From: an uncultured Dehalococcoidia bacterium | GTDB lineage: Bacteria > Chloroflexota > Dehalococcoidia > Lucifugimonadales > Australimonadaceae | Direction of reading: 5' to 3' | Length of the DNA stretch: 64,000 bases | Assembly (NCBI GenBank): GCA_958295525.1 | Contig: OY282355.1 | Coordinates: forward strand, 1,915,931 to 1,979,930 | Shown: piece by piece, positions 3-64,000 of the stretch | Layout: every line of letters starts with the position of its first letter | Position numbering within the stretch: position 1 is the first letter of the stretch | Notes under the pieces: generated by a model | Seen by the model: only the letters and a program-made list of their open reading frames with translations | Databases searched by the model: none | What the model was told of the DNA's origin: nothing | Translations under genes and position numbers: made by a program

Positions 3-1181
3 GACGACATTGTTCCCGGCGTCTACGTCAGCGCCGCCCTGACCGAACCGTGCGAATGGAGCAGACGCCGCGACTTCCGCGGCCGCCCCAATTCCGTCAT
101 CGGCGAGGGCGCGCTTGCGAGCGGCGTCCTCCGCCTCGCCGTTTTGCCCACCGACGGCGCCGTCAGGATTTCTCAGGGGTGCGGCGTTCTCTCGCTCGAA
201 ACGCAGGCGGGCGACTCCGCGCGCGGGGTCGCCGCTACGGAGCGCCGCCGCTCCGTGACGCTCAGCAGCGGCGTAAGCCATACCTGCGCGCTCACGCCGG
301 AAGGCGAAGCCGTTTGCTGGGGCAGCGACGCCCAAAAGCAATCGTCCCTTCCCGAACTGAAGGACGCGAAAGGAACCCCTGTCCCGCCGGAGACGCTCCG
401 CTTCACCTCCATCAGCGCGGGGAGTTTCCACACCTGCGCCATCCGCGACGGGCACGAGCCCCTATGCTGGGGCGACGACAAGGACGGGCAATCCTCGCCA
501 CCGGCGCGCGACCAGTTCGTCACGCTCGACAGCGGCGACCTCCACGTTTGCGCGCTCCGGCTCCAGGGCGTCACCGTGTGCTGGGGCAGCGACGGCGGCG
601 CGCTCGCGGGCGTCCCCACGCCCACCCCGACCTCCCGCGAGTCCCACTACTACGACGGACTCCGCCGCGCCACGCCCCCGCCCGACGAGCGGTTCGCCTC
701 CGTTAGCGCGGGCGGCCAGCACACTTGCGCCCTCCACTCCGACGGAACGCCCCGCTGCTGGGGCGCCAACCGCTACGGCCAGACCGGCCCGCCCGGAGGC
801 GAGCGTTTCGCGTCGATCAGCAGCGGCAGCCTGCACACCTGCGCCCTCAAGTTCGACGGAACGGCCGTCTGCTGGGGCAACGACGCCTACGGACAGGCGT
901 CGCCTCCGGCGGGGCAAACGTTCTTCGCCATAAGCAGCGGCAGGCAGCACACGTGCGCTCTCCGGCCCGACGGCGCCGCAGTCTGCTGGGGCAGCGACGC
1001 CGAAGGCCAGGCGTCGCCCCCCGATCCCGACGACCGCTACGCCGCAGTCAGCAGCGGCGCGCTCCATACTTGCGCCCTCCGGCTGGACGGCGCCGCCGTC
1101 TGCTGGGGCGCCGACACGCACGGGGAAGCCTCGCCTCCCGAAGCCGCCCGCTTCGCCGTCGGCGGCGCAACCGCCGGCTGA
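3..1181 (+). CDS. RCC1-repeat (beta-propeller) protein, 5' end outside window
   Basis: The frame stays open from the window edge to TGA at 1179-1181. It holds seven tandem repeats of the form xHTCAL-x-x-DG-x-x-x-CWG-x-x-x-x-GQ-x-x-PP, the RCC1-like signature. Confidence 0.8.
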   Translation, partial: DDIVPGVYVSAALTEPCEWSRRRDFRGRPNSVIGEGALASGVLRLAVLPTDGAVRISQGCGVLSLETQAGDSARGVAATERRRSVTLSSGVSHTCALTPEGEAVCWGSDAQKQSSLPELKDAKGTPVPPETLRFTSISAGSFHTCAIRDGHEPLCWGDDKDGQSSPPARDQFVTLDSGDLHVCALRLQGVTVCWGSDGGALAGVPTPTPTSRESHYYDGLRRATPPPDERFASVSAGGQHTCALHSDGTPRCWGANRYGQTGPPGGERFASISSGSLHTCALKFDGTAVCWGNDAYGQASPPAGQTFFAISSGRQHTCALRPDGAAVCWGSDAEGQASPPDPDDRYAAVSSGALHTCALRLDGAAVCWGADTHGEASPPEAARFAVGGATAG

Positions 1182-2051: not shown

Positions 2052-2546
2052 GTGAACATTGACGCCGTGCACCAAAAGATCGCCGACGATGAGGCGTTGC
2101 CGAAGGCGGAGGCGTTCGGCGAGGCGGTGAGCGATGCGCTATTCGCGTACACCTGCGCGACGGAAAGCGTTGAGGACTGCTATCGCGCCCTCGACCCGCA
2201 AGGGAACGAGGAGGCCGCCGCCCTGCTGAGGGAGGTCTACGAGACCGCCGCCCAGTCCTTGAACGCGATTGACGACGCCCTCCGCGACTACAACGCCGCC
2301 TTTCGGAAACTCGCCGGTTTCGCGCGTCCCCTCGAACCTAGAGACCTCCACGGCATGGCTGCTGTTGACGCGCTCTACGCGCTCGGCGGCAGCGCTCCCA
2401 TCGAAGACGTCATCGAGCGCGTCAATGGCCGGCTGGCCGCCGCCGGAGAGACGGCGTGGGCGGGGACGGTGGCGCGCGCTCGGCCGGTACAGGCGGATCG
2501 TCTACCCCAGGTAGCGAGTCACCTTGTCCGGTCGAACTCCTCGTGA
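2052..2546 (+). CDS. hypothetical protein
   Basis: GTG at 2052 with AGGAGG 6 nt upstream, inside track ORF 1995..2546. Helical, acidic protein with no motif recognised. Its 3' end overlaps the convergent restriction gene by 28 nt. Confidence 0.45.
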   Translation: MNIDAVHQKIADDEALPKAEAFGEAVSDALFAYTCATESVEDCYRALDPQGNEEAAALLREVYETAAQSLNAIDDALRDYNAAFRKLAGFARPLEPRDLHGMAAVDALYALGGSAPIEDVIERVNGRLAAAGETAWAGTVARARPVQADRLPQVASHLVRSNSS

Positions 2547-3217
2547 TGATGGTATAGGGTGTGCAGATCGGCGGAATTGACCCTGAACTTCGTTCCGTGG
2601 TTGCGAAGCCCGCTCCCGTTGGTTGTGCGCGCGTCAAAGTCTATGGCGACGACGCCTCGCTCTATCGCGTCGATGAATCGCGTGATCTGCGGCTCCTTGT
2701 ACAAACGCGCCGAATCGTAGCGAACGGCCTTCTGCTGCTTGGCCCCGGTGACGGTGATCAGTTGCCTGAACTTCGCCGCGAACGCATTGATGAGTCTGTC
2801 ATGCGTCCAATATGGCCAGTCTATGTCCCCTACGTCGTTTTTCACGTAGATGCGTTCGCCCTCGTTGACCACGTAAAACCCGCGCTTTGAGCGGCCTCTC
2901 AAGGTGTGCCGAAAGTTCGTCTGGCCGTGCTTCCCTTCCCAGCCGAATTTCTTAATGAGGTCGTGCATGTACCCGGGAGGCTCAGCCTCCATGTGGAACA
3001 ATGTGAGCAGGGTCTTTCCCGTGTGGAACTTAATCTCCCACTTTCCCGCGTCGGGCATGGAATAGTTCCGTCCGCTGATCTCCAGCAGGTCTTCGAGAAG
3101 CCGACCGGGCGCGCCAGAGCCGCCATAGCCCGTCTCTTCGGGTATCGGAATCCAGTCACGCTCCAAGACTCCTCGGAGCCGCGCGTAGAGTTCGTTATCG
3201 GGAACGAACAGCGTCAT
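2519..3217 (-). CDS. type II restriction endonuclease, MvaI/BcnI family
   Basis: 232 aa. PDAGKWEIKFH followed by LLTLFHMEA matches the D..E-x-K core and the LTLFH block remembered from BcnI/MvaI. The C-terminal GVVAIDFD...NHGTKFRV...LHTLY block is also family-like. The ATG overlaps the methylase stop (ATGA). Confidence 0.8.
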   Translation of the reverse strand: MTLFVPDNELYARLRGVLERDWIPIPEETGYGGSGAPGRLLEDLLEISGRNYSMPDAGKWEIKFHTGKTLLTLFHMEAEPPGYMHDLIKKFGWEGKHGQTNFRHTLRGRSKRGFYVVNEGERIYVKNDVGDIDWPYWTHDRLINAFAAKFRQLITVTGAKQQKAVRYDSARLYKEPQITRFIDAIERGVVAIDFDARTTNGSGLRNHGTKFRVNSADLHTLYHHHEEFDRTR

Positions 3218-4002
3218 TTTTGCACTCCCGCCCCGCGCTCCAAGCGGTCGTAGGCCAATTCCACGTACTCAGGGGCTTTCTCAATGCCGATCCAGCCCAC
3301 CCCTGCCCGCTCCGCCGCTATTGCCGTTGTGCCGCTCCCCATAAACGGATCGAGGACAGGCCCAGCCCCAACGGATTCTATACACCTCGCCGCCAGGTCA
3401 ACAGGGAAGGGCGCCGGGTGAGGATTATTGCTCTCTTGCTTGATTCTCCACACGCAGCCGACCGCGTTCGCCTTCGGCGCGAGTTTGAAATCCGGTTTGG
3501 CGATCAGGTACACCACCTCGTAGTCGGGCAGGAAGTAGCCCGGATTGAAATTGATCCCCCCCGCCCTATGCCAAATGATGATCTGACGCACAGGGAACCC
3601 CTCGACGATCTCGTGCCGGTCTTGGAGCAGTCCATTCTGGACGCGCCATTTATGGTTGTAGAAGATTGCCCCGTCGGAGCGGAGCACGCGCAGCATCTCG
3701 GACAGGCACTCCCGCTGCCAGGCTACGTACTCGTCGTAGGGGAGAGCGTCATCGTGGAGCGCGTAGCCGTCCTGCAACGCCGCTTTCGGCCATTTGCCGC
3801 CGTTGGCGTTCTTCAGCCCGTTGCCCGTGCTGTTCTTGATGTTGTAGGGCGGAGAGGTCACCACCACGCGCACGGACTGGTTCGGCATCGTCCGCATAAT
3901 ATCGAGGCAGTCGCCGCGCAGGATGACGCCCCGAAGCCCAAGCGACGGAGCGGGCTCGGGCTCGGCGGCTGTCTCTATGGAGTCTGGAACCGGGTGAACC
4001 AT
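3214..4002 (-). CDS. DNA methyltransferase, N4/N6 beta class (TSPPY motif, probably m4C)
   Basis: 262 aa. Motif IV VVTSPPYN precedes motif I DPFMGSGTT, the beta-class order. SPPY is typical of N4-cytosine enzymes. Translationally coupled to the R gene. Confidence 0.9.
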   Translation of the reverse strand: MVHPVPDSIETAAEPEPAPSLGLRGVILRGDCLDIMRTMPNQSVRVVVTSPPYNIKNSTGNGLKNANGGKWPKAALQDGYALHDDALPYDEYVAWQRECLSEMLRVLRSDGAIFYNHKWRVQNGLLQDRHEIVEGFPVRQIIIWHRAGGINFNPGYFLPDYEVVYLIAKPDFKLAPKANAVGCVWRIKQESNNPHPAPFPVDLAARCIESVGAGPVLDPFMGSGTTAIAAERAGVGWIGIEKAPEYVELAYDRLERGAGVQK

Positions 4003-4074
4003 GCAGGAGAGACTACTCCGCTATCGTAGGATATGGCAACAGGCCATACGCTGCGCTTGGTACGTCTACTACTC

Positions 4075-38349: not shown

Positions 38350-39441
38350 CTACGCGAACGCGGGGATGACCTCCTTGCCGAAGAGCGCGATGGACGACTC
38401 CACCATCGCGTGAGGCATCCGCCCGACGTGGAACTTGCCGGCGAAATGGTCGTAGCCGATGCGCTCGCGGCCTTCGGCGACGCGGCGGGCGACGGTCTCC
38501 GGGCTGCCGACGAGCGCGAGGCCGTTGTCGATCCAAAAGTCGTAGGAGCGGACGCACTCGCGGAAGATGCGCCCGCGCTCGCGGATGTCCTCGCTGTCCT
38601 CGCTGCCCATTCCGCGCGGGTGGGAGCCGAAGCCGACCCGGCTCGCGGCGACCAACTCGCGCCCCAGCGTGTTCGCCTCCAGCAGGTATTGGCGCGCTTG
38701 CTCGTGGGCTTTGGCGTCCGTCTCCGCGACGTGGACGACGCGCATCAGAAACTGGCGCGGCATCGGGCCGTCGTGCCCGTGGGACTTCCACGCGCCGCGC
38801 CACTCGGCGAATTTGCGCTCCATTGAATCGTCGGTGTCTATGTTCTGCGCCATGTGATAGCCGCGCCGCGCGGCGAACGCTATCGCGCGCGAACTGTGCA
38901 CCGCCGCCCATATCGGCGGGCGCGGCCTCTGGTAGGGCATCGGCTGAACGAGCGCCTCGTCGATCCGCCAAAACTTGCCTTCGTAGGTGACCGAGCCGTC
39001 TCCGCGCCACGCGGCCTCAATGATGTCCAGCGCCTCTTCGCTCATCTCTTGGCGGGCGTAGAAGTCCATCCCCCAGCGCAGGAACTCGTGCTCGTGAACG
39101 CCGATGCCGGTTCCGAACTCGGCGCGCCCGCCGGAGAGGTGGTCGAGCATCGCCACGTCCTGCGCGAGGCGCACCGGATGATGGAAGGGCAGTTGCCATA
39201 TCATCGTGCCGAGCCGGAGGGACTCGGTGTGGCGGGCGACGGCCGTGAGGAATATCTGCGGAGAGGTCACCGCGCCGACGTAGGAGCCCTGGTGCTCCAG
39301 CGTCCAGTAGTAGCCGAAACCGGCGCGCTCCATCAGTTGCGCCTGCCGGATGTGCGTCTCGTAGACCTCGGCGGCGGTGGCCGCGTGGAGCGTCTCGTAG
39401 GTCTGCATCTGATCCCATACGCCGAACTCGATCCGCGTCAT
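38350..39441 (-). CDS. LLM-class (luciferase-like) flavin-dependent oxidoreductase
   Basis: MTRIEFGVW..., LDHLSGGRAEFGTG. ATG at 39441 with GGAGG 8 nt upstream. The 5' extension in the track is rejected. Confidence 0.9.
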   Translation of the reverse strand: MTRIEFGVWDQMQTYETLHAATAAEVYETHIRQAQLMERAGFGYYWTLEHQGSYVGAVTSPQIFLTAVARHTESLRLGTMIWQLPFHHPVRLAQDVAMLDHLSGGRAEFGTGIGVHEHEFLRWGMDFYARQEMSEEALDIIEAAWRGDGSVTYEGKFWRIDEALVQPMPYQRPRPPIWAAVHSSRAIAFAARRGYHMAQNIDTDDSMERKFAEWRGAWKSHGHDGPMPRQFLMRVVHVAETDAKAHEQARQYLLEANTLGRELVAASRVGFGSHPRGMGSEDSEDIRERGRIFRECVRSYDFWIDNGLALVGSPETVARRVAEGRERIGYDHFAGKFHVGRMPHAMVESSIALFGKEVIPAFA

Positions 39442-39693
39442 TCGCAACGCCTCCAGGCAAACAGCGGCGCTAATGCTACCGCAAGAACGCCGCGCCACGC
39501 CCTTATCCGTCAGCGGTCGTTGCGGCGCTCTTTGCGCTCCGTGACGACGAGGGCGCCGTGCGCGTCCCGCGCCTCGTCGAACACGACGCGGCTCTTCTTG
39601 CCCCCGTGTATCTGCGGCTCCTGCGCCAAGTTTGCGGCGGGGCAGGTCCACGGGGCCGTTCTCCGCAACGATGGGGTTACGCGAATCTCCTCG

Positions 39694-40938
39694 TCAGTAA
39701 TCCAGCCCCGGCGCGGGGAAGCGCGAGGCCAGTTGCGCCGCCTCGTCGGCGACGGCGCGCAGCGCAGAGGCGTCGTCCCGGCTGTCGAGCGTCCGGGCGA
39801 TGAGTCGCGCGACCACTTGGCACTCCTCCGCGCCGAAGCCGCGCGAAGTTACGGCGGGCGTCCCGATCCGCAAGCCGCTCGTCACCCGCGGGGGCTGCGG
39901 GTCGTTCGGAATCGCGTTCTTGTTCACCGTGATGCCCACGCCGCCGAGCGCCGCTTCCGCGTCTTGCCCCGTCCATCCGACGGGGCGCAAGTCCACGAGC
40001 ATGAGGTGGTTGTCCGTGCCGCCGGAGACGATCCGCAGCCCCTCGCCCTCCAGCGCCGCCGCCATCGCGCGGGCGTTCTCGACGATCCGCCGTCCGTAGT
40101 CCGCGAAATCGGGGCGGAGCGCCTCGCCGAAGCAGACCGCCTTCGCGGCGATGGCGTGCATAAACGGCCCGCCCTGCGCGTAGGGGAACACGGCGCGGTC
40201 AACCGCCCGCCGCCGCTCCTCGCCGCACAGAATGAACGCCCCGCGAGGCCCGCGCAGCGACTTGTGCGTCGTGCTCGTCACCACCGCGGCGTGAGGCAGG
40301 GGAGAGGGGTGCGCGCCCGCCGCGACGAGCCCTGCGATGTGCGCCATATCCACCATCAGAACCGCGCCGGACTCCTCCGCGATTTCGGCGAATCTGGCGA
40401 AGTCTATGGAGCGCGAGTAGGCGGTGAACCCCGCGACGATGACTTTCGGCCTGCGCTCCCGCGCCTGCTGCGCGATGGCGTCGTAGTCCAACTGCTCCGT
40501 CTCAGGGTCGAGCCCGTAGGACGCGAAGTCGTACAACTTGGCGGAGAAGTTGACGGGGCTGCCATGCGTGAGATGGCCGCCCTGGTCCAGTTGCAACCCC
40601 ATTATCGTGTCGCCGGGCTCGCAGAGGGCGGCGTACGCCTCCATATTGGCCGCCGCGCCCGCGTGGGGCTGGACGTTGGCGTGCTCCGCCCCGAAGAGTT
40701 CCTTCGCGCGGTCTATCGCGAGTTGCTCCGCCGCGTCCACGAACTCGCAGGAGCCGTAATAGCGGCGGCCGGGATAGCCTTCGGCGTACTTGTTGGTCAG
40801 CGGAGAGCCCTGCGCCTCCATTACGGCGCGGCTCGCGTAGTTCTCGGATGCGATGAGCACGATGTCGCGGCGCTGGCGCTCCGCCTCCTGCCGCACCGCC
40901 TCCGCGACCTCCGGGTCTTGTTCAGTCAAAGCGCTCAA
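39694..40938 (-). CDS. glyA: serine hydroxymethyltransferase
   Basis: [15 protein letters not shown], the [16 protein letters not shown]-lysine block, and [14 protein letters not shown] start with GGAGG 8 nt upstream. Confidence 0.95.
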
Positions 40939-41323
40939 CAGCGTCGCCTCCGGTGATGGGAATGCGCGGGCGCAATGATCAGCGCCGCCAAGCGCGTCTG
41001 AGCGCTGCTGAGCGCGGGCAAGTCCGCGAAAGCCCTGATCAAGCCTCTACAGGATACGGCGCGCGCGCGCAAGCGCGCAATCAGCGCTGGTTCGCGCAGG
41101 CGAATAGGGAGGGGCGGCGGGCGGCGCGGAGCGGAATGGGCAAGCCACTCGCAAGCGATGAGGAGGCAACAATAAGCGCCAATGAGTGCAATGCCACGCG
41201 GCGCTTGCGCGCCGCCGCCGCGACCGCCTACGATGAGCGTATGAGCGATTGGCTTCCCTTTCCGCCTGACAATCCCCATGGGCGGCGCGGGCGCGGTTGC
41301 GGGCACGGGGGCGAGGGCTGAGC

Positions 41324-48770: not shown

Positions 48771-49619
48771 ATGGCCGAGCGCGAGATGACGCTCCGCGAT
48801 CACCTCGAGGAGTTGCGGCGGCGGCTCTTCATCGTGCTCATATTCATCGTTCTGGCGACGGCGGCGGCGTTCTTCTTCCGCGCCCGCATATTCGACTTCC
48901 TCCTCGCGCCCGGCTTCGACGAACTCGACGAGATGCCCATAGCCACCGAGGTGCTGGAGACGGTCGGCGTGACGTTCAAAGTGACGCTGATGGTCGCGTT
49001 CGCCGTGTCGCTTCCCGTCGCGCTCTACCAGGCGATTATGTTCGCGTCGCCCGGCCTCACGCGGCGCGAGCGGCTCTACGCCTTCCTCTTCCTGCCCGCC
49101 GTGCTCGCCGCGTTCGGCGCGGGAGTCGCCTTCGGCTACTACGTGCTCTTCCCGCCCGCCTTCTCGTTCCTCTTCAACTTCGCCGCCGAAACCGTGAATC
49201 CGGAGATACGCATATCCAGTTACGTCAACGTCATTACGTCGCTGATGTTTTGGATGGGCGTCGTCTTTCAGATTCCCGTCGCGCTGTTCGCGCTGGGGCG
49301 CTTGGGCGTCGTAAGCCCGCGATGGCTCGCCCGCAGATGGCGCTACGCCGTGCTGCTCGCGTTCATCCTCGCCGCCGTCATCACGCCGACGTTCGACCCG
49401 GTGAATCAGACGCTCGTCGCCGCGCCGATCATCGTGCTGTACCTGTTCGGCATCTTGCTGGCGCGTCTGGGCGAACGGCTGCGGCGCGGAGCGCAAGCCA
49501 AGCGCGAGCCCGGCCCGGGGAGGCTGCGCCGCGCCTGCCGGAAACTCGCATTCTGGCGGCGATGCCCGCTCCACCGGAAACTCGCGTTTTGGCGGAGGTT
49601 CAGACGCAGAGAAAACTAG
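48771..49619 (+). CDS. tatC: Tat translocase subunit TatC
   Basis: MTLRDHLEELRRRL, six TM segments, and the PTFDPVNQ block. Confidence 0.9.
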   Translation: MAEREMTLRDHLEELRRRLFIVLIFIVLATAAAFFFRARIFDFLLAPGFDELDEMPIATEVLETVGVTFKVTLMVAFAVSLPVALYQAIMFASPGLTRRERLYAFLFLPAVLAAFGAGVAFGYYVLFPPAFSFLFNFAAETVNPEIRISSYVNVITSLMFWMGVVFQIPVALFALGRLGVVSPRWLARRWRYAVLLAFILAAVITPTFDPVNQTLVAAPIIVLYLFGILLARLGERLRRGAQAKREPGPGRLRRACRKLAFWRRCPLHRKLAFWRRFRRREN

Positions 49620-51327: not shown

Positions 51328-51529
51328 CGAAACCTCCGCTCCGCCGCCGGAGCCTCGCTCCACTATACGCCGACGCCCGCTACGCCGCGGAGCGCGCGAC
51401 ACGCGAAGAGGGGGCGTGTAACTCCCCTCCGCCCTTCCGTGCAACGCCGTGCGCGCCTCTTTACCTTTCGCCGTCGGCGCGCTATCCTATCGGCTTGACC
51501 CGGCGCACCGCCCCTGAAGGAGGCTCCCT

Positions 51530-51988
51530 ATGGTTGACGTTGGCCAGCCCGCTCCCGACTTCGCGCTCAAGAGCCACGAAGGCGAGGACTTCTCCCTTGC
51601 CGGCGCGAGAGGCTCCTGGGTGATTCTGCATACCTTCCCCGCCGCCTTCACCGGAGGGTGAACGACGCAGACCTCCTCCTTCAACCGTGCGTTGAAGACG
51701 TTCGAAGACAAGAACGCCCAGTTGATCGGCCTCAGCGCCGACTCCCGCCCCTCGCTGCGGGCGTGGGCAGCCAATATGGGCGGCCTCAGGCACCCCCTCC
51801 TCTCCGACTTCTGGCCCCACGGCGCCGTCGCCGAAGCCTACGGCATCCTCAACCCCAACTCCGGGATGTGCGCCCGCTCCCTCTTCATCATCGACCCGGA
51901 CGGCCTCGTCCGCTACAAGGAACTCTACCAGGGCGCGCTGCCCGACCCGGACGTCATTCTCGGCGAACTGGCGCGGCTGCAGGGCTAG
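51530..51988 (+). CDS. AhpE-like 1-Cys peroxiredoxin with in-frame UGA (probable selenocysteine) at codon 44
   Basis: ATG at 51530 with GAAGGAGG 6 nt upstream. FPAAFTGG-TGA(51659-51661)-TTQ continues in the same frame into track ORF 51692..51988. PLLSDFWPHGAVAEAYGI closely matches the mycobacterial AhpE pattern. Confidence 0.75.
51679..51697 (+). promoter_or_regulatory. SECIS-like hairpin downstream of the in-frame UGA
   Basis: CTTCAAC-CGTGC-GTTGAAG: a perfect 7-bp stem with a 5-nt loop containing GU, starting 17 nt after the UGA. Confidence 0.45.
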
Positions 51989-52075
51989 CGCGGCTGCGTC
52001 GCGGAGGGCGGGGCGCGGGGCATTTCGCTCCGCCCTCCGCGTCCGGCCCAGCGCTGCGGCGCCGCAACGGCGACG

Positions 52076-58422: not shown

Positions 58423-59067
58423 CTAGGGCGAGGGGGCAGCGGTTTCGCCGAAGAGGTCGCGGAGCCAGTCGGTGAAGCGAACGCAAAGCGGGCCGTCAAC
58501 AGACAGGTCAAGCGACTTGATCGCCAGACCCGGCGGACGCGGCTCTTCTCTCGCGGCAAGCCAAGCGTGCACTTGCGCCCGCAAACGCTTGCCTTCTTTG
58601 AACTTCCGATGCCCTTTCGGGATGCCGTCAATGTAACTCTGCGCGAGCGGCCAGACTGCATCGTCGGCAGGGATCATTTTCTGCAGGAAATCCTCAAGTT
58701 CCCCGGGCGACTGGTTATCGGGCATCATCCAAACCCCAACGCGGGGCAGCCCAGTTGAGGGATCGCTGTCGACAATGGCGCCTGCTGACAGCGGGTTGAG
58801 AGGCAGATCGATCCCTGCGTCGTAGAGCCTGCCCCGCACTGCCTGCCACCTGTTCTCAGGATGGTCGTTCGCGTCGAGAATTATGCCCAGAACCGTCCGT
58901 TCCTCACTGGTGACCGCACGGTAGATGGCGTCCAACAACTGGTGAACGCCGTTCTTGGCCAGCACGGGGAATTCGGGAATCGGCGGAGACAAATTCGCGC
59001 AGATGTTGAGCGCAACGTGCTTATCGGTTTCGCCTTCCACGAGCAATAGTTTTTCAGGGTTAGCCAT
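58423..59067 (-). CDS. Toprim-like small protein (DUF3226/DUF4435/RloB-like class), partner of the upstream ATPase
   Basis: 214 aa. It starts LLLVEGETDKHV (conserved Glu) and later has GIILDANDH (DxD-like), the Toprim acidic signature. Lies 5 nt downstream of the ATPase gene. Confidence 0.7.
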   Translation of the reverse strand: MANPEKLLLVEGETDKHVALNICANLSPPIPEFPVLAKNGVHQLLDAIYRAVTSEERTVLGIILDANDHPENRWQAVRGRLYDAGIDLPLNPLSAGAIVDSDPSTGLPRVGVWMMPDNQSPGELEDFLQKMIPADDAVWPLAQSYIDGIPKGHRKFKEGKRLRAQVHAWLAAREEPRPPGLAIKSLDLSVDGPLCVRFTDWLRDLFGETAAPSP

Positions 59068-59072
59068 GCGGT

Positions 59073-60326
59073 TTACCGCACTTCCAGTCCTTGCTCATCG
59101 GGGATGGCAAGTTCGTGCTCGTCGTACTCGACCGCATGCAGCGTTCCGCCTTTTCTCGACAGGCGAACGAGAATGCCCTCAACCTCCTTGTTCTCATTCG
59201 CCGCATTCTCATTCGCCGCGATCGCTTCCGCGAAGCCGCGAATGCAATCCGCGCTGTGCGTCGTGGCGATCACCTGCACGTTGTTGGCCTGCGCGGTCTG
59301 CAAAACCATGCGCCAGAAGGCGCTCTGCACTGTGTAGTGCAAGCCGTTCTCCGCCTCGTCAATGAGCAGGAAGCCGTTCTTGCTGTTCGCAAGCGCTAGC
59401 GCAACGCTGTAGAGACGCAGCGCGCCATCGCCAAGACTTTTTAACGGCACTACAGGAGACGAACCATTCGAGGCGACCTTTACGACGGCTCTACGGCCGG
59501 ATCGTGTTTCTCTAGCATCGCCAACCATGTAAACGCTCTCCACCGCATCACCGAATATCATACTGAGAGGCTCTCTTGCGAAGGTATCCTCCCCTTCGTT
59601 GACGGCGTTGTCCCACAAACGCGCGAGCGTAGCGTTGGCTGGCAGTCCAGGGCCTAACATTTCGCATTTAATGGAGCGCGATGGCTCTTCCGTATCGATT
59701 GGCCGTCGGGTAGAGGCTCCACGATCAGCGAACGATGGCCGACGTCCAATTATTGCCCGCGGTATGCTTATTCCTTCACTTGAAAACAACCAAGGAATTA
59801 TCCATGTGCGTCCGCCAATCGTTGCCCTGAGCACGTACCATACTCCGTCCAAGACATGCGGAGAAAATCTCGCAAGGTCGATATAGGGGGATTCTAACTC
59901 GCTCGCAGGGCTAACCGTCACCGTTAGCATTCCGCTGCCCTGGCTCCCGATTGAAACACAAACTCCTTCTGACGGGGCGCGACCGTAAAAAAGCGCGGCG
60001 GCGTTCGTAGCGAGCACAGGATCGCCGTCCTCGTCAAGGCTAGTGACGGTCTCCTCGCGGCTCCTCAGTATCCCTGACAGGGCTTCAGCGCTCGCGCGCG
60101 CCGCATAGACGCGCACCGCCTCCAGCACGGTCGACTTCCCGATGCCGTTCTTGCCTGCGATGAGCGTGACGCGCCCCAGGCGGGGAATCGTGAGCGCGTC
60201 GATCCCCCGGAACCCCTCTATCGTGAGGTCCCGCAGGTGGAGCGGCGGCGCGTCGCCCGCGAGCCGTTCCTGCGGAGGTTGCTCCGTGATCGTCATAGGG
60301 GAGAGTGTAGCGCTTGGGGCGCCCAT
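59073..60326 (-). CDS. ABC-type AAA_15/AAA_21-family ATPase
   Basis: Walker A LIAGKNGIGKST, signature-like LKSLGDGALRL, Walker B FLLIDEAENGLH, and an H-loop ATTHS. The start could be ATG 60296. Confidence 0.85.
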   Translation of the reverse strand: MGAPSATLSPMTITEQPPQERLAGDAPPLHLRDLTIEGFRGIDALTIPRLGRVTLIAGKNGIGKSTVLEAVRVYAARASAEALSGILRSREETVTSLDEDGDPVLATNAAALFYGRAPSEGVCVSIGSQGSGMLTVTVSPASELESPYIDLARFSPHVLDGVWYVLRATIGGRTWIIPWLFSSEGISIPRAIIGRRPSFADRGASTRRPIDTEEPSRSIKCEMLGPGLPANATLARLWDNAVNEGEDTFAREPLSMIFGDAVESVYMVGDARETRSGRRAVVKVASNGSSPVVPLKSLGDGALRLYSVALALANSKNGFLLIDEAENGLHYTVQSAFWRMVLQTAQANNVQVIATTHSADCIRGFAEAIAANENAANENKEVEGILVRLSRKGGTLHAVEYDEHELAIPDEQGLEVR

Positions 60327-60534: not shown

Positions 60535-63500
60535 TTACGGGACCAGCGTGCTGGGGCGCTGCGACCAGACCCAGTAGCCGGAGCCGTTCAGGATCTCGTT
60601 GTTGCAGACCTCAGGGGTGGTCGCGTCCTCATCGGCGTCCGAGCAGCCGACACTCGCTTTCGGCGTGTAGCGCGTCCAGACGCTCTGCTGCGTGTCGTAG
60701 GAGTAGGCGACCTTCCACGGGATGCTGTTGAAGTAGGTGTCCGCCTCGCCGTAGACCTCGGTGCCCGGCGCTTCGCCGGCCGCCTGCTGATCAATGTCTA
60801 TGACGCCGAGCAAGTTCCAGCCGGCGGTGACCGGCACCGTGGGCGGCGTGGACGCCGGGTCGATCTCCGTCAGCAGCGTCGAGATCGTCTCGAATGTCCG
60901 GGCGTTCACCCAGTAGCCGTAGCCGGCCGTGATGTCCGTCAGCGTCCCTTGCCAGCCGTCATCCGTGCGGCGAGCCGTCAGCCAGTCGCCGTTCTGGTAG
61001 GCGAGCACCGGAGTGAGGAACTCCGTCTTGGACAAGACGTTGGCGATGGCCGTGTCTTCGGGGTCGCCGGGCAGCGAGACCAAGTTCCAGCCAGGCTTGA
61101 CCTCGACTTTGTACGGCTTCCGGGCGATCACCTCGAAGGTGAACGAGCCGTCGTTGTACTCGTTCCCCGCGTCGTCCCTGGCCTTGTAGGTCAACTTGTA
61201 CCTGCCGACCTCTTTGTCGCGGAGCACCACCGAGAACTCATTCTTGGCCACGCGGCTCATTTGGCCGGTCACGTCCGCGCCGTCCAGTTCGATCTCGGTG
61301 ATTTCCACCGTGCCGTGGGAGTCTTTGAACGCGCCCTCGGCGTACTCGCTGCCTTCCTCTTTGAACTGCAGCCGGATGAACGGGTTGGGGCTCTCCGTCT
61401 TCTTCGTGTCGGCGCCGCTGCGCGGCGTCACGCTCTCGTCAAGGTTCGCGGAGGCGGAGCCGCCGTTGAACGCCGTGTCCACCTCCACGAGAAGGTCGGC
61501 GTCGTCCACCTTCTGCACGTCGAGCGGGGCGTTGAGGGCGATGGTGGGATTGATGTTGGCCCGATGCGCGATGTTCTCCAAGCCGGGCGTCATTCGGACG
61601 TTCCCTTCGCTGTCGTCGCGCGCGACCACGAACATTGCGATCAGTCCCTCGACTCCGCTCAAGTCGCTCACTTTGCAGTCGCGCTTCCAGTGGCGGTCGT
61701 CTTCCTGCGGCGTGAGGTTGCAATTCGGGTACGGGCTCGGGCTGTCCGCGGTGGCGTAGGTGTACCCGGTCGCCGGCTCCGTCTCTTCGTTGGCCTTGAT
61801 GGGCACGAACAAGACGCTGGGGCGCCCGTTCAAGTCCTCGTCCGAGCGCACCTCGACGGTGAACGAGCCCTTCGCGCTGTTGGCGACGGGGCGGTCGCCC
61901 TTGGCTCCGGTCACCGTGACCGTCAGCACGGGGGCGATCCAGTCGTCCGCGTCTTTTTCGACGGCCTTGTCGAGCGTGTTGCCGGCCAAGTCCTGCGCGA
62001 CGCCGCTGAGCAGCGCCACCGTGGGCGTGTCGTCGCTGCCGAGCGGAGTCGCCAACTGGATGTACACGCGCTGCCGCGGGTCGGGAAGTTGGCCGGCGTC
62101 GCCGGCGTCGGCTATGGCCTCGCCCGGGCACAGGTTCGGGTTGGGAATTTGCGCAGGGTGATTGGGGTTGGGAATCATATCGCCGGGGGCAGCGTTAGGG
62201 TCGGGGTCTTGAATCAGGGGGGCAGGGTCGGGGTTGGCGATCATCGCGTCCAGCGTGCAGTCCCCAGGGTCGACGTCGTCCGTCTGCCCGCGGAAGGTCT
62301 TCGGCCCTTGGTTGGGCTGAATCACTCCGGTGACCCGGTTGTCTGTGACGGTGATCTGGTCCAGGCGAATCTCGCCGGCCTTGATCGCCTCGTTGAACGT
62401 CAGCGCAATGGACGAAAGGTTGACAACCTCCCTGTTCTTGGCGTTGTCGTAGGAGATGCCCGTGCGGACGGCGCCGAGCGTGGGCTTCCCATCGTCCACG
62501 GTGAAGAGGTAAGGCTCTTTCGTGTCGGGGCTGTCGAGTTCGGCGTCCGAGGTCGCCAGGTTGCCGACGCGGTCCATCGCGGTTATCTGCAGGTTGTTCA
62601 CGCCGTCGGGGTAGGTGGCGCCGCTCGCCGAGAAGGCGTAGCCGAAGCCGGCGCGGCCGATGAGCGTCCACGCGCCCTGGTCGGTGATGTCTTCGCTGCG
62701 GTTCACGTTGGCGACCGCTCTATCCGTCAGCCTGTCGCCAACGGGGTCTCTGCTCCAATAGACGGCTTGGATTTCGGCGGCTTTGCCGTTGGTCAAACCG
62801 AAGAGCGCAGTGGGGGCGGCCATAGAGAGCGGCTCCGACGCGCGGTTGCCGTCGCGGTCGGGGTCGATGGAGCCGGGGTCGCCGTCCGAAGTGAGGGCGA
62901 GTTCGCCGTCGTGGCGCAGACCGGCGTCGTGGTCGCGAACTTCAAAGCGGAACGAGAGGTTGGACGAGCGGACGACGCTCGTGTCCACCGGGCTGATCAG
63001 GTTGATCTCGGGGGCTTCAGCGTCCACGACGAGGACGATGTTGCTTGGCTGGCCCTCGATGCGAACGTTCAGCCGGTCGTTGTGGCGCGCCCTGATCTGC
63101 CCGATCAGGTCCGGGTCGTCCAGGATAGGGTCGCCGTTGGCGTCCACAACCGGGATCTGGGAGCCGGGGCTGTCGGGGTCAGGCATCATGTCCTGAGCGC
63201 CGTCGTAGTTGGAGCAACGGGGCCCGTGGACGTCGCTCAGCGGGGTCGCCGCGTTCGCGTCCACGACCTTGAAGAACGCCTGCACGTCGCGGACAGCGGG
63301 GGTTCCGGTCGACAAGCCGCTGGTTTCGACGAGCGGAACGTTAATGCTCCCGCCGGTTCGCGGGTTGGAGACGATGGCTTTGGGGTAGAGCGCGCAACGG
63401 GTGGGGACCGTCGAGCCATCGGGGTTGTTCACCTTGTAACTGATGAGCGCCGTGTTGTAGGCCTCGTCGGTGTTGCCGATGTAGAGCAATCCGCCGGAGC

Positions 63501-63897
63501 GGGTGTTTCGGGTGTCAACGTAGCCCATCGTCAGGAAGGCGGGGTTGGTCACGTCGATCGTGCCGTCGGGGGTTGAAGGGGTGACGCCGGGGAATGTGCC
63601 GCCCACCACGAGGGAGCCGAGGGAGCCGTCGGCGTCAGCGGTGTCAGCGCCGGGCAGGTAGAACGGAATCGGGTTGCCGTCGCCATCCACGCGGTTGGTG
63701 TTGGTCGTTCGCACGAGGCGGACGGTCTGGGCGTCGGCCACGTCGTCGAAGACGCCGACTTGGAGGTCGCCGGTCTTCGTTCTGCCCTCCGTCTGAACGA
63801 TGTCGTCGTCCGTTTGGCCGAACGCAGGCATCAGGAAGAGCAGCGAGAGCGCCCCTGCCAGCAGTGTCGCTATGATCGGAATCCTCGTGAATCTCAC
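60535..63897 (-). CDS. large secreted cell-surface protein (S-layer/adhesin-like)
   Basis: 1120 aa. Signal peptide MRFTRIPIIATLLAGALSLLFLMPAFGQ, followed by an acidic, Thr/Asp/Gly/Pro-rich beta-type sequence. The C-terminal module is duplicated: GWNLVSLPG...GYGYWV and GWNLLGV...GSGYWVW. Confidence 0.8.
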   Translation of the reverse strand: MRFTRIPIIATLLAGALSLLFLMPAFGQTDDDIVQTEGRTKTGDLQVGVFDDVADAQTVRLVRTTNTNRVDGDGNPIPFYLPGADTADADGSLGSLVVGGTFPGVTPSTPDGTIDVTNPAFLTMGYVDTRNTRSGGLLYIGNTDEAYNTALISYKVNNPDGSTVPTRCALYPKAIVSNPRTGGSINVPLVETSGLSTGTPAVRDVQAFFKVVDANAATPLSDVHGPRCSNYDGAQDMMPDPDSPGSQIPVVDANGDPILDDPDLIGQIRARHNDRLNVRIEGQPSNIVLVVDAEAPEINLISPVDTSVVRSSNLSFRFEVRDHDAGLRHDGELALTSDGDPGSIDPDRDGNRASEPLSMAAPTALFGLTNGKAAEIQAVYWSRDPVGDRLTDRAVANVNRSEDITDQGAWTLIGRAGFGYAFSASGATYPDGVNNLQITAMDRVGNLATSDAELDSPDTKEPYLFTVDDGKPTLGAVRTGISYDNAKNREVVNLSSIALTFNEAIKAGEIRLDQITVTDNRVTGVIQPNQGPKTFRGQTDDVDPGDCTLDAMIANPDPAPLIQDPDPNAAPGDMIPNPNHPAQIPNPNLCPGEAIADAGDAGQLPDPRQRVYIQLATPLGSDDTPTVALLSGVAQDLAGNTLDKAVEKDADDWIAPVLTVTVTGAKGDRPVANSAKGSFTVEVRSDEDLNGRPSVLFVPIKANEETEPATGYTYATADSPSPYPNCNLTPQEDDRHWKRDCKVSDLSGVEGLIAMFVVARDDSEGNVRMTPGLENIAHRANINPTIALNAPLDVQKVDDADLLVEVDTAFNGGSASANLDESVTPRSGADTKKTESPNPFIRLQFKEEGSEYAEGAFKDSHGTVEITEIELDGADVTGQMSRVAKNEFSVVLRDKEVGRYKLTYKARDDAGNEYNDGSFTFEVIARKPYKVEVKPGWNLVSLPGDPEDTAIANVLSKTEFLTPVLAYQNGDWLTARRTDDGWQGTLTDITAGYGYWVNARTFETISTLLTEIDPASTPPTVPVTAGWNLLGVIDIDQQAAGEAPGTEVYGEADTYFNSIPWKVAYSYDTQQSVWTRYTPKASVGCSDADEDATTPEVCNNEILNGSGYWVWSQRPSTLVP

Positions 63898-64000
63898 TTC
63901 TACCCCCCTTGCGGAGCTGTGGTTCTAGGCTGCGCGCGCTCGGTTTGCGAGAGCAGGTTCCTTCGCGTCGTGTTCCGGCTTGCGCGCCCGCCAACGGACG

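Follow-up and report, generated by a model that had tools for sequence, protein, structure and literature searches.

Sec-peroxiredoxins, peroxiredoxins that use selenocysteine (Sec), have been known since 2001-2005 from proteins carrying a TxxU motif (PMC1088965, PMC13188914). A PxxxTxxU motif has been described for the group (PMC13188914), and one such protein, from Eubacterium acidaminophilum, is cited in that source as having been verified experimentally. In the Sargasso Sea selenoproteome, Sec-peroxiredoxins form the second most abundant known family, with 43 genes (Zhang, Fomenko & Gladyshev 2005, PMC1088965). Two metagenome-assembled genomes (MAGs) of Dehalococcoidia, with 49 and 46 selenoprotein genes, rank in BSepDB among the ten most selenoprotein-rich bacteria, and SelA and SelB are enriched in sponge-symbiont bins. 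Here, we describe a locus of an uncultured Dehalococcoidia bacterium, contained in a 64,000-nt stretch of DNA (the window; positions are counted from its first letter). A reading frame at 51530..51988 on the forward strand, interrupted by an in-frame TGA, is to our estimate with roughly 90% probability a single gene, encoding a 152-residue peroxiredoxin of the AhpE subfamily that works with one redox residue and has Sec as its peroxidatic residue. Because PxxxTxxU peroxiredoxins, the bacterial Sec insertion sequence (SECIS), and selenoprotein-rich Dehalococcoidia are all established, the gene would represent a new, mis-annotated member of the Sec-peroxiredoxins.

In translation, the frame comprises 152 codons from ATG 51530 onward, followed by TAG at 51986-51988, with TGA as codon 44 (51659..51661, +). 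A Shine-Dalgarno-like element, GAAGGAGG (51516..51523, +), can be read from the sequence 6 nt 5' of the start codon. All of these coordinates agree with those in a preliminary description of this DNA, made from the sequence alone, which had also expected standard gene callers to truncate the gene. They do so: the list of open reading frames (ORFs) splits it into 51530..51661 (43 aa) and 51692..51988 (98 aa, TTG start), and public annotation likewise gives fragments of 43 aa and 98 aa. Such split public records include MBV1876807.1 (43 aa) together with MBV1876808.1 (98 aa), MXY54339.1, MYB35835.1, and MYE24270.1, and where the clade occurs in NCBI MAGs labelled Gammaproteobacteria and Pseudomonadales, its members are entered as two "redoxin domain-containing proteins," one of 43 aa and one of 98 aa. 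The TTG that ORF finders take as the start of the 98-aa fragment (51692..51694, +) encodes Leu55 and lies in the 3' arm of the hairpin described below, making it a false start, at which the database fragments P0001, P0004, P0006, and others also begin.

The assignment of 51530..51988 (+) as one complete coding sequence for an AhpE-type peroxiredoxin is based on its translation, a Pfam match, the best match in the PDB, and selection on both sides of the TGA. For the profile search, a Cys was placed at the TGA position of the translation. The resulting sequence matches Pfam AhpC-TSA (PF00578) with 123.9 bits (cut-off 26; E value 4.8e-36) over positions 1-123 of the 124-position profile, spanning the TGA; with the profile matched at full length, the homology therefore runs through the stop codon. 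The best solved structures are those of Mycobacterium tuberculosis AhpE (1XXU and others; E 7.5e-29, 39% identity over 135 residues). Seven AhpE chains fall between E 7.5e-29 and 5.6e-28, whereas the next peroxiredoxin type (Prx1/AhpC) follows at E 5e-18 or weaker, leaving a gap of approximately ten orders of magnitude in E between AhpE and the other types; the protein is thus closer to AhpE than to peroxiredoxins of the AhpC/Prx1, Prx6, BCP, or Tpx types. An LLSDFWPHGAV motif is common to the window protein and M. tuberculosis AhpE, and in the alignment the TGA falls on the peroxidatic Cys45 of the latter, in FPLAFTGIC. Both the AhpE-like character of the protein and the position of the TGA in the peroxidatic-Cys column, as proposed in the preliminary description, are thus borne out by alignment.

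The codon for the proposed Sec is the last of the active-site motif P37-A-A-F-T41-G-G-U44 (PxxxTxxU; 51637..51661, +). P37, T41, column 44, and R116 are invariant across the clade in the alignment, with R116 aligned to an Arg of M. tuberculosis AhpE. Column 44 excepted, no Cys is invariant in the clade, and C114 of the window protein is replaced by Ala in most orthologues. Because no second Cys is conserved, the chemistry is expected to involve one redox residue, with an external thiol partner needed for recycling. The PrxU equivalog (NCBIfam NF040737) is not matched at its cut-off (69.7 bits vs 270). As judged from its sequence, the window protein is a predicted one-Sec, AhpE-type peroxiredoxin, and the gene is predicted to work like PrxU yet falls outside the PrxU equivalog.

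Relatives of the gene were compared at the DNA level, using DNA fetched for the protein-search matches plus 56 metagenome loci. Among the matches of the protein search itself are many C-terminal fragments of 98 aa, which are 53-92% identical and each span only 64% of the query. In the underlying DNA, the codon 44 column holds TGA in all 41 unique full-length orthologues (41/41), and likewise in six further loci (L018, L019, L024, L027, L050, and L051). Every relative at or above 56% identity has the TGA, amounting to ~50 loci that span 56-92% amino acid identity and genomes of 42-70% GC. Two Dehalococcoidia MAG chromosomes, 89-91% identical, represent the nearest genomes, and each carries the TGA and an identical hairpin. 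TGC or TGT occupies column 44 in relatives that are 39-44% identical (L052-L065 and L067), and the hairpin is absent there. The homologue alignment suggested in the preliminary description thus separates close homologues, all with TGA, from distant ones with a Cys codon. One 152-aa database entry, P0002 (an ENA translation), shows W in this column; the underlying DNA is TGA, and the W appears because the gene was called under a different genetic code. Among the relatives, the same C-terminal fragment (P0007) is present on two contigs, at L010 507-983 and L011 2182-2640. The N-terminal part in L010 is shorter by ~17 residues (…TPAPA-KWVVLHTFP…) relative to L011, which reflects either an in-frame deletion or an assembly artefact.

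Selection was assessed by gene segment as mean pairwise Nei-Gojobori proportions of synonymous (pS) and nonsynonymous (pN) differences. Codons 2-43, upstream of the TGA, have a pS of 0.71 and a pN/pS of 0.31; codons 45-50, between the TGA and the hairpin, have values of 0.78 and 0.25; and codons 56-152 have values of 0.70 and 0.37. All three segments are under purifying selection and are therefore translated in one frame. Within codons 45-50, Q47 is invariant and T48 is found in 35 of the 41 orthologues. TGA also ends the neighbouring serine hydroxymethyltransferase (SHMT), UvrB, DnaE, and SecD ORFs; because it is a stop for neighbouring genes, the genome uses the standard code. These patterns of codon change show a gene that is intact and translated through a conserved UGA at its peroxidatic position.

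Screens of the 64-kb window by third-position GC content and by a codon model singled out the TGA at 51659 as the sole in-frame TGA flanked on both sides by coding signal. A second screen candidate, at 49408(-), proved to be an antisense artefact. The in-frame TGA at 39694, within the region 38350-41046 (-), was also rejected as a selenoprotein: SHMT (39697-41046) simply ends there (TGA 39694-39696), and a luciferase-like monooxygenase ORF follows in the same frame, with its luciferase domain beginning 89 codons in. The apparent internal UGA thus reflects two ordinary adjacent genes. No further selenoprotein candidates were found in the flanks of the related loci.

Beginning 17 nt after the TGA, the sequence contains a perfect 7-bp inverted repeat, CTTCAAC (51679-51685) and GTTGAAG (51691-51697), separated by CGTGC. 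The corresponding SECIS-type hairpin (51679..51697, +), with the stem CUUCAAC/GUUGAAG and the loop CGUGC at 51686-51690, is supported by this repeat, by pairing across orthologues, and by its fit to the bacterial SECIS (bSECIS) model. The stem, loop, and distance had been given correctly in the preliminary description, which considered them compatible with a bacterial SECIS. The bSECIS model specifies an apical loop of 3-9 nt, an upper stem of 4-16 bp, a UGA-loop distance of 16-37 nt, a minimum free energy (MFE) of no more than -7.5 kcal/mol, and a G within the first two loop positions (PMC13188914). The loop found here has 5 nt, with G-U at loop positions 2-3, the stem measures 7 bp with a conserved core of 5 bp, and the distance from UGA to loop is 24 nt. 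Loop, stem, and spacing thus follow the published rules, with the MFE lying at the threshold.

The comparison with relatives gives this hairpin its weight. Codons 51-55 (TTC, AAC, CGT, GCG, and TTG) are each represented by one codon in at least 39 of the 41 genes, whereas synonymous choice is wider, at four to six codons, in the other columns where Leu, Arg, Pro, or Gly is invariant. In codon entropy, these five rank lowest among 54 conserved degenerate columns, and their pS is 0.064 vs ~0.7 elsewhere. They form the near-invariant 16-nt core TTCAACCGTGCGTTGA (51680..51695, +), which encodes F51-N-R-A-L55 and whose final base is the first base of codon 56. This 16-mer is kept in genomes of 42-70% GC and occurs once in the window. 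Across 39 distinct rows of the alignment, 88.6% of the cells of the 7-bp helix are paired, compared with 21-48% in slid registers, and covariation is seen at the basal pair (CG 17, GC 3, UG 3, UA 2, and unpaired 14). The RNAalifold consensus is a 5-bp core, UCAAC/GUUGA, with the loop CGUGC. Because the core hardly varies, the support comes mostly from synonymous-site suppression and not from covariation. The check outlined in the preliminary description, whether UGA-containing orthologues conserve the hairpin, is answered by its conservation even at synonymous sites, and the codon data show the downstream hairpin to be under RNA-level selection. A different pairing, CGACGCA-UGCGUUG (51663-51669 with 51688-51694), is present in the window and in L001 and would compete with the SECIS hairpin. 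It is the MFE fold in the window lineage but was set aside, as it is not conserved in other orthologues.

Several results weigh against Sec insertion at this site. The genes selA, selB, and selD were not found in the 64-kb window by Pfam scans of 56 of its ORFs together with a motif scan, and the fetched flanks of related loci contain neither these genes nor tRNA-Sec. ARAGORN likewise reports no tRNA-Sec in the window, and only tRNA-Ser and tRNA-Met in 51 related loci. Indirect support for Sec insertion comes from the literature at class level, through the selenoprotein-rich Dehalococcoidia MAGs of BSepDB, and from the SelA and SelB data on sponge symbionts. The hairpin is borderline in energy, with an MFE of -6.0 kcal/mol bare and -7.5 kcal/mol with two flanking nucleotides per side, and in the single sequence, the 76-nt fold does not surpass shuffled sequences (z = +0.57). 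The surrounding 661 nt contain eight inverted repeats, such that the hairpin alone does not stand above chance. Rfam, its SECIS models included, gives no match at gathering score in the window, and only chance-level, unrelated families in 51600-51800. Taken as a single sequence, the hairpin is therefore unremarkable, and the case rests on comparison with relatives. There, too, the core stem is nearly invariant, with true covariation confined to the basal pair and one variant, and an extended lower stem (alignment columns 15-20 with 46-51) was rejected, being paired in 62% and no better than controls.

In addition, three loci (L027, L030, and L046) keep the TGA but carry different hairpins. In L046, coordinated changes, AAC to CAT and TTG to ATG, preserve a hairpin, with the stem CAUC/GAUG and the loop GUGC above a lower stem of 7 bp, which counts in favour of the element. 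At the equivalent place, L030 and L027 form stem-loops that are more stable but unrelated, and the G of the SECIS model is missing from the apical loop of L030 (AACA). These loci may represent a second SECIS type or decaying genes.

How far these points count depends on what else could explain a conserved TGA followed by a conserved hairpin. If the TGA were a nonsense mutation in a pseudogene, or a TGC or TGT miscalled through a sequencing or assembly error, no full-length protein would be made, in keeping with the fragments reported by gene callers and NCBI (43 aa plus a 98-aa "redoxin domain-containing protein") and with the unremarkable single-sequence fold. The same TGA is, however, found in ~50 independent assemblies at 56-92% identity, with no TGC or TGT among them; both flanks are under purifying selection, with synonymous change saturating, and the catalytic residues P37, T41, and R116 are invariant. 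The gene could instead encode a split protein, consisting of a 43-aa peptide and a 98-aa fragment started at TTG 51692, for which the 16-mer would act as a translation-initiation element. The TTG is indeed invariant and is taken as a start by ORF finders, but no Shine-Dalgarno sequence lies 5' of it, and codons 45-50, which lie between the TGA and the TTG, are conserved as protein (pN/pS 0.25) with free synonymous change (pS 0.78) and are therefore translated in frame. The catalytic residue would also be lost, while Cys-type homologues are single chains. Because both sides of the TGA and codons 45-50 are maintained as protein in one frame, we regard pseudogene, sequencing error, and split protein as excluded for practical purposes, the first two jointly and the third each retaining a barely perceptible chance.

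Translation through the UGA could also proceed without Sec, either because the code is reassigned (to Trp or Gly) or because the hairpin stimulates read-through by a near-cognate tRNA or with Cys. The W at column 44 in the translation P0002 would fit such a scenario, but the DNA of P0002 is TGA, and its locus does not yield that protein under table 11. Reassignment as in code 4/25 is rejected, and thereby excluded, because TGA terminates neighbouring housekeeping genes as an ordinary stop. With Trp or Gly at this position, the enzyme would moreover be inactive, which does not fit the strong constraint on the active site, and a UGA at the catalytic Cys column combined with a G-U loop hairpin at SECIS distance is what defines bacterial selenoprotein genes. 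We therefore consider read-through without Sec distinctly improbable. It is also conceivable that Sec insertion does occur but that something else constrains the 16-mer, such as the binding of a small RNA or a protein, or mRNA stability, the true SECIS being different or larger. Consistent with this, the core is conserved as sequence and not by covariation, the hairpin lies at the weak end of the energy range of the model, and 12.6% of bacterial selenoprotein genes have no canonical SECIS (BSepDB). Against it, the element is found together with the TGA and is missing in Cys homologues, and the SECIS model accommodates both its position and its loop. Variants that lost the consensus have gained other hairpins at that place, and no alternative conserved structure was found. 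This makes a separate role of the 16-mer very improbable, and a Sec-encoding UGA followed by its own SECIS is the reading that we prefer.

In the mechanism proposed for this Sec-encoding gene, a ribosome arriving at UGA-44 would have the 19-nt hairpin (5-7 bp stem, loop CGUGC) 17 nt downstream, where it would serve as a bacterial SECIS. SelB·GTP·Sec-tRNA(Sec) would bind the hairpin and deliver Sec in competition with release factor 2, after which translation would run on to the TAG at the end of the frame. We consider it highly probable that Sec is the residue inserted and that SelB binds the hairpin. The U44 selenolate, activated by T41 and R116 in the PxxxTxxU pocket, would then reduce peroxide and be converted to the selenenic acid. 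For recycling, the enzyme would rely on a thiol partner from outside, which is probably thioredoxin or a glutaredoxin/mycoredoxin-like protein. In M. tuberculosis, AhpE is restored through mycoredoxin-1/mycothiol, a system that, to our knowledge, is not expected in Chloroflexota. Cys homologues in Anaerolineae (P0013, P0018, and P0020) are fused to a glutaredoxin domain, which fits a glutaredoxin-like reductant as a hint and no more.

The peroxiredoxin gene (prx) is followed by a gene for a TrmI-like methyltransferase, which adjoins prx in more distant loci too. In three of these more distant loci with a TGA-containing prx (L005, L008, and L009; 5.1-9.7 kb), prx lies directly 3' of a glycine-cleavage operon (gcvT, gcvH, gcvPA, and gcvPB) and 5' of the TrmI-like gene. 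In the window, unlike in those three loci, the upstream neighbour of prx is a divergently transcribed transporter of the major facilitator superfamily. Between the prx stop and the TrmI-like gene, 12 nt past the stop, lies a GC-rich inverted repeat (52000..52041, +) with 16-nt arms, CGCGGAGGGCGGGGCG and CGCTCCGCCCTCCGCG, that are 94% complementary and separated by a 10-nt spacer. This repeat is possibly a 3' stem-loop of the prx transcript, although its belonging to the gene is uncertain; a terminator scan does not call it because it has no T-tract.

Elsewhere in the window, a type II restriction-modification pair at 2519-4020 (-) consists of an MvaI/BcnI-family endonuclease (2522-3268) and an N4/N6 DNA methylase (3217-4020). 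Its third-position GC of 0.73-0.78, vs ~0.87 elsewhere, suggests a mobile insert. A DUF3226 protein (E 9e-49) is encoded at 58423-59094 (-) with a third-position GC of 0.70, below that of its neighbours, and this gene is possibly foreign DNA. An ORF of 1130 aa at 60535-63924 (-) has only a marginal match to Big_13 (bacterial Ig-like), and an RCC1-repeat protein at 3-1181 (+) runs off the left end of the window.

If the gene is a selenoprotein gene as proposed, a functional antioxidant gene sits in public records as two fragments or as a pseudogene, with the many 98-aa entries among the examples. No NCBIfam model captures the clade, and such a model would correct dozens of split records, probably many more. 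The clade appears to cross phylum labels with an identical SECIS core. If true, this pattern would suggest that the gene and its SECIS have spread horizontally as one cassette between marine and sponge-associated bacteria, or else that the sequence recognised by SelB is unusually strict. The locus supports the picture of a selenium-rich redox metabolism in marine and sponge-associated Dehalococcoidia, and as a compact, sequence-invariant natural SECIS of 19 nt, the hairpin could be of use in studies of SelB recognition or in engineering Sec insertion. Existing knowledge of Sec decoding is not changed by it. What it would add to the Sec-peroxiredoxins is an AhpE-type member, its notable features being the AhpE-type scaffold and a compact invariant SECIS that overlaps the FNRAL codons. 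Whether the clade amounts to an uncatalogued selenoprotein subfamily, of the one-Sec AhpE type and with a minimal SECIS, TTCAACCGTGCGTTGA, doubling as the FNRAL codons, is a tentative proposal to which we assign somewhat less than an even chance.

Set against the systems described to date, the window gene combines features of several. With PrxU of E. acidaminophilum (Söhling et al. 2001; NF040737), it would have in common a peroxidatic Sec, encoded by a UGA in PxxxTxxU, and a bacterial SECIS downstream; it differs in belonging to another peroxiredoxin subfamily and in its length, 152 residues compared with a profile of 233 positions. It resembles M. tuberculosis AhpE (Rv2238c; 1XXU, 1XVW, and 4X0X) in its near-equal length (153 aa in the latter), in the FP-x-AFTG-x-C/U motif, and in having no conserved resolving Cys, whereas M. 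tuberculosis AhpE has Cys45 where the UGA, and hence the proposed Sec, stands, and its mRNA is without a SECIS. The Sargasso Sea Sec-peroxiredoxins, which are marine metagenomic sequences, likewise have a TxxU motif and a UGA at approximately codon 43-44 (PMC1088965). They are, however, of the BCP/PrxQ type (WFYPKASTPGU..., COG1225), and none has FNRAL, unlike the window clade (PMC1088965). As for the hairpin, it resembles bacterial SECIS elements of the Escherichia coli fdhF type in forming, immediately 3' of the UGA and still within the coding region, a stem-loop with a small G-U apical loop. It departs from a typical bacterial SECIS in being very short, barely at -7.5 kcal/mol, and with no supported lower stem, and also in that its 16-nt core is, unusually, kept as primary sequence across genomes of 42-70% GC.

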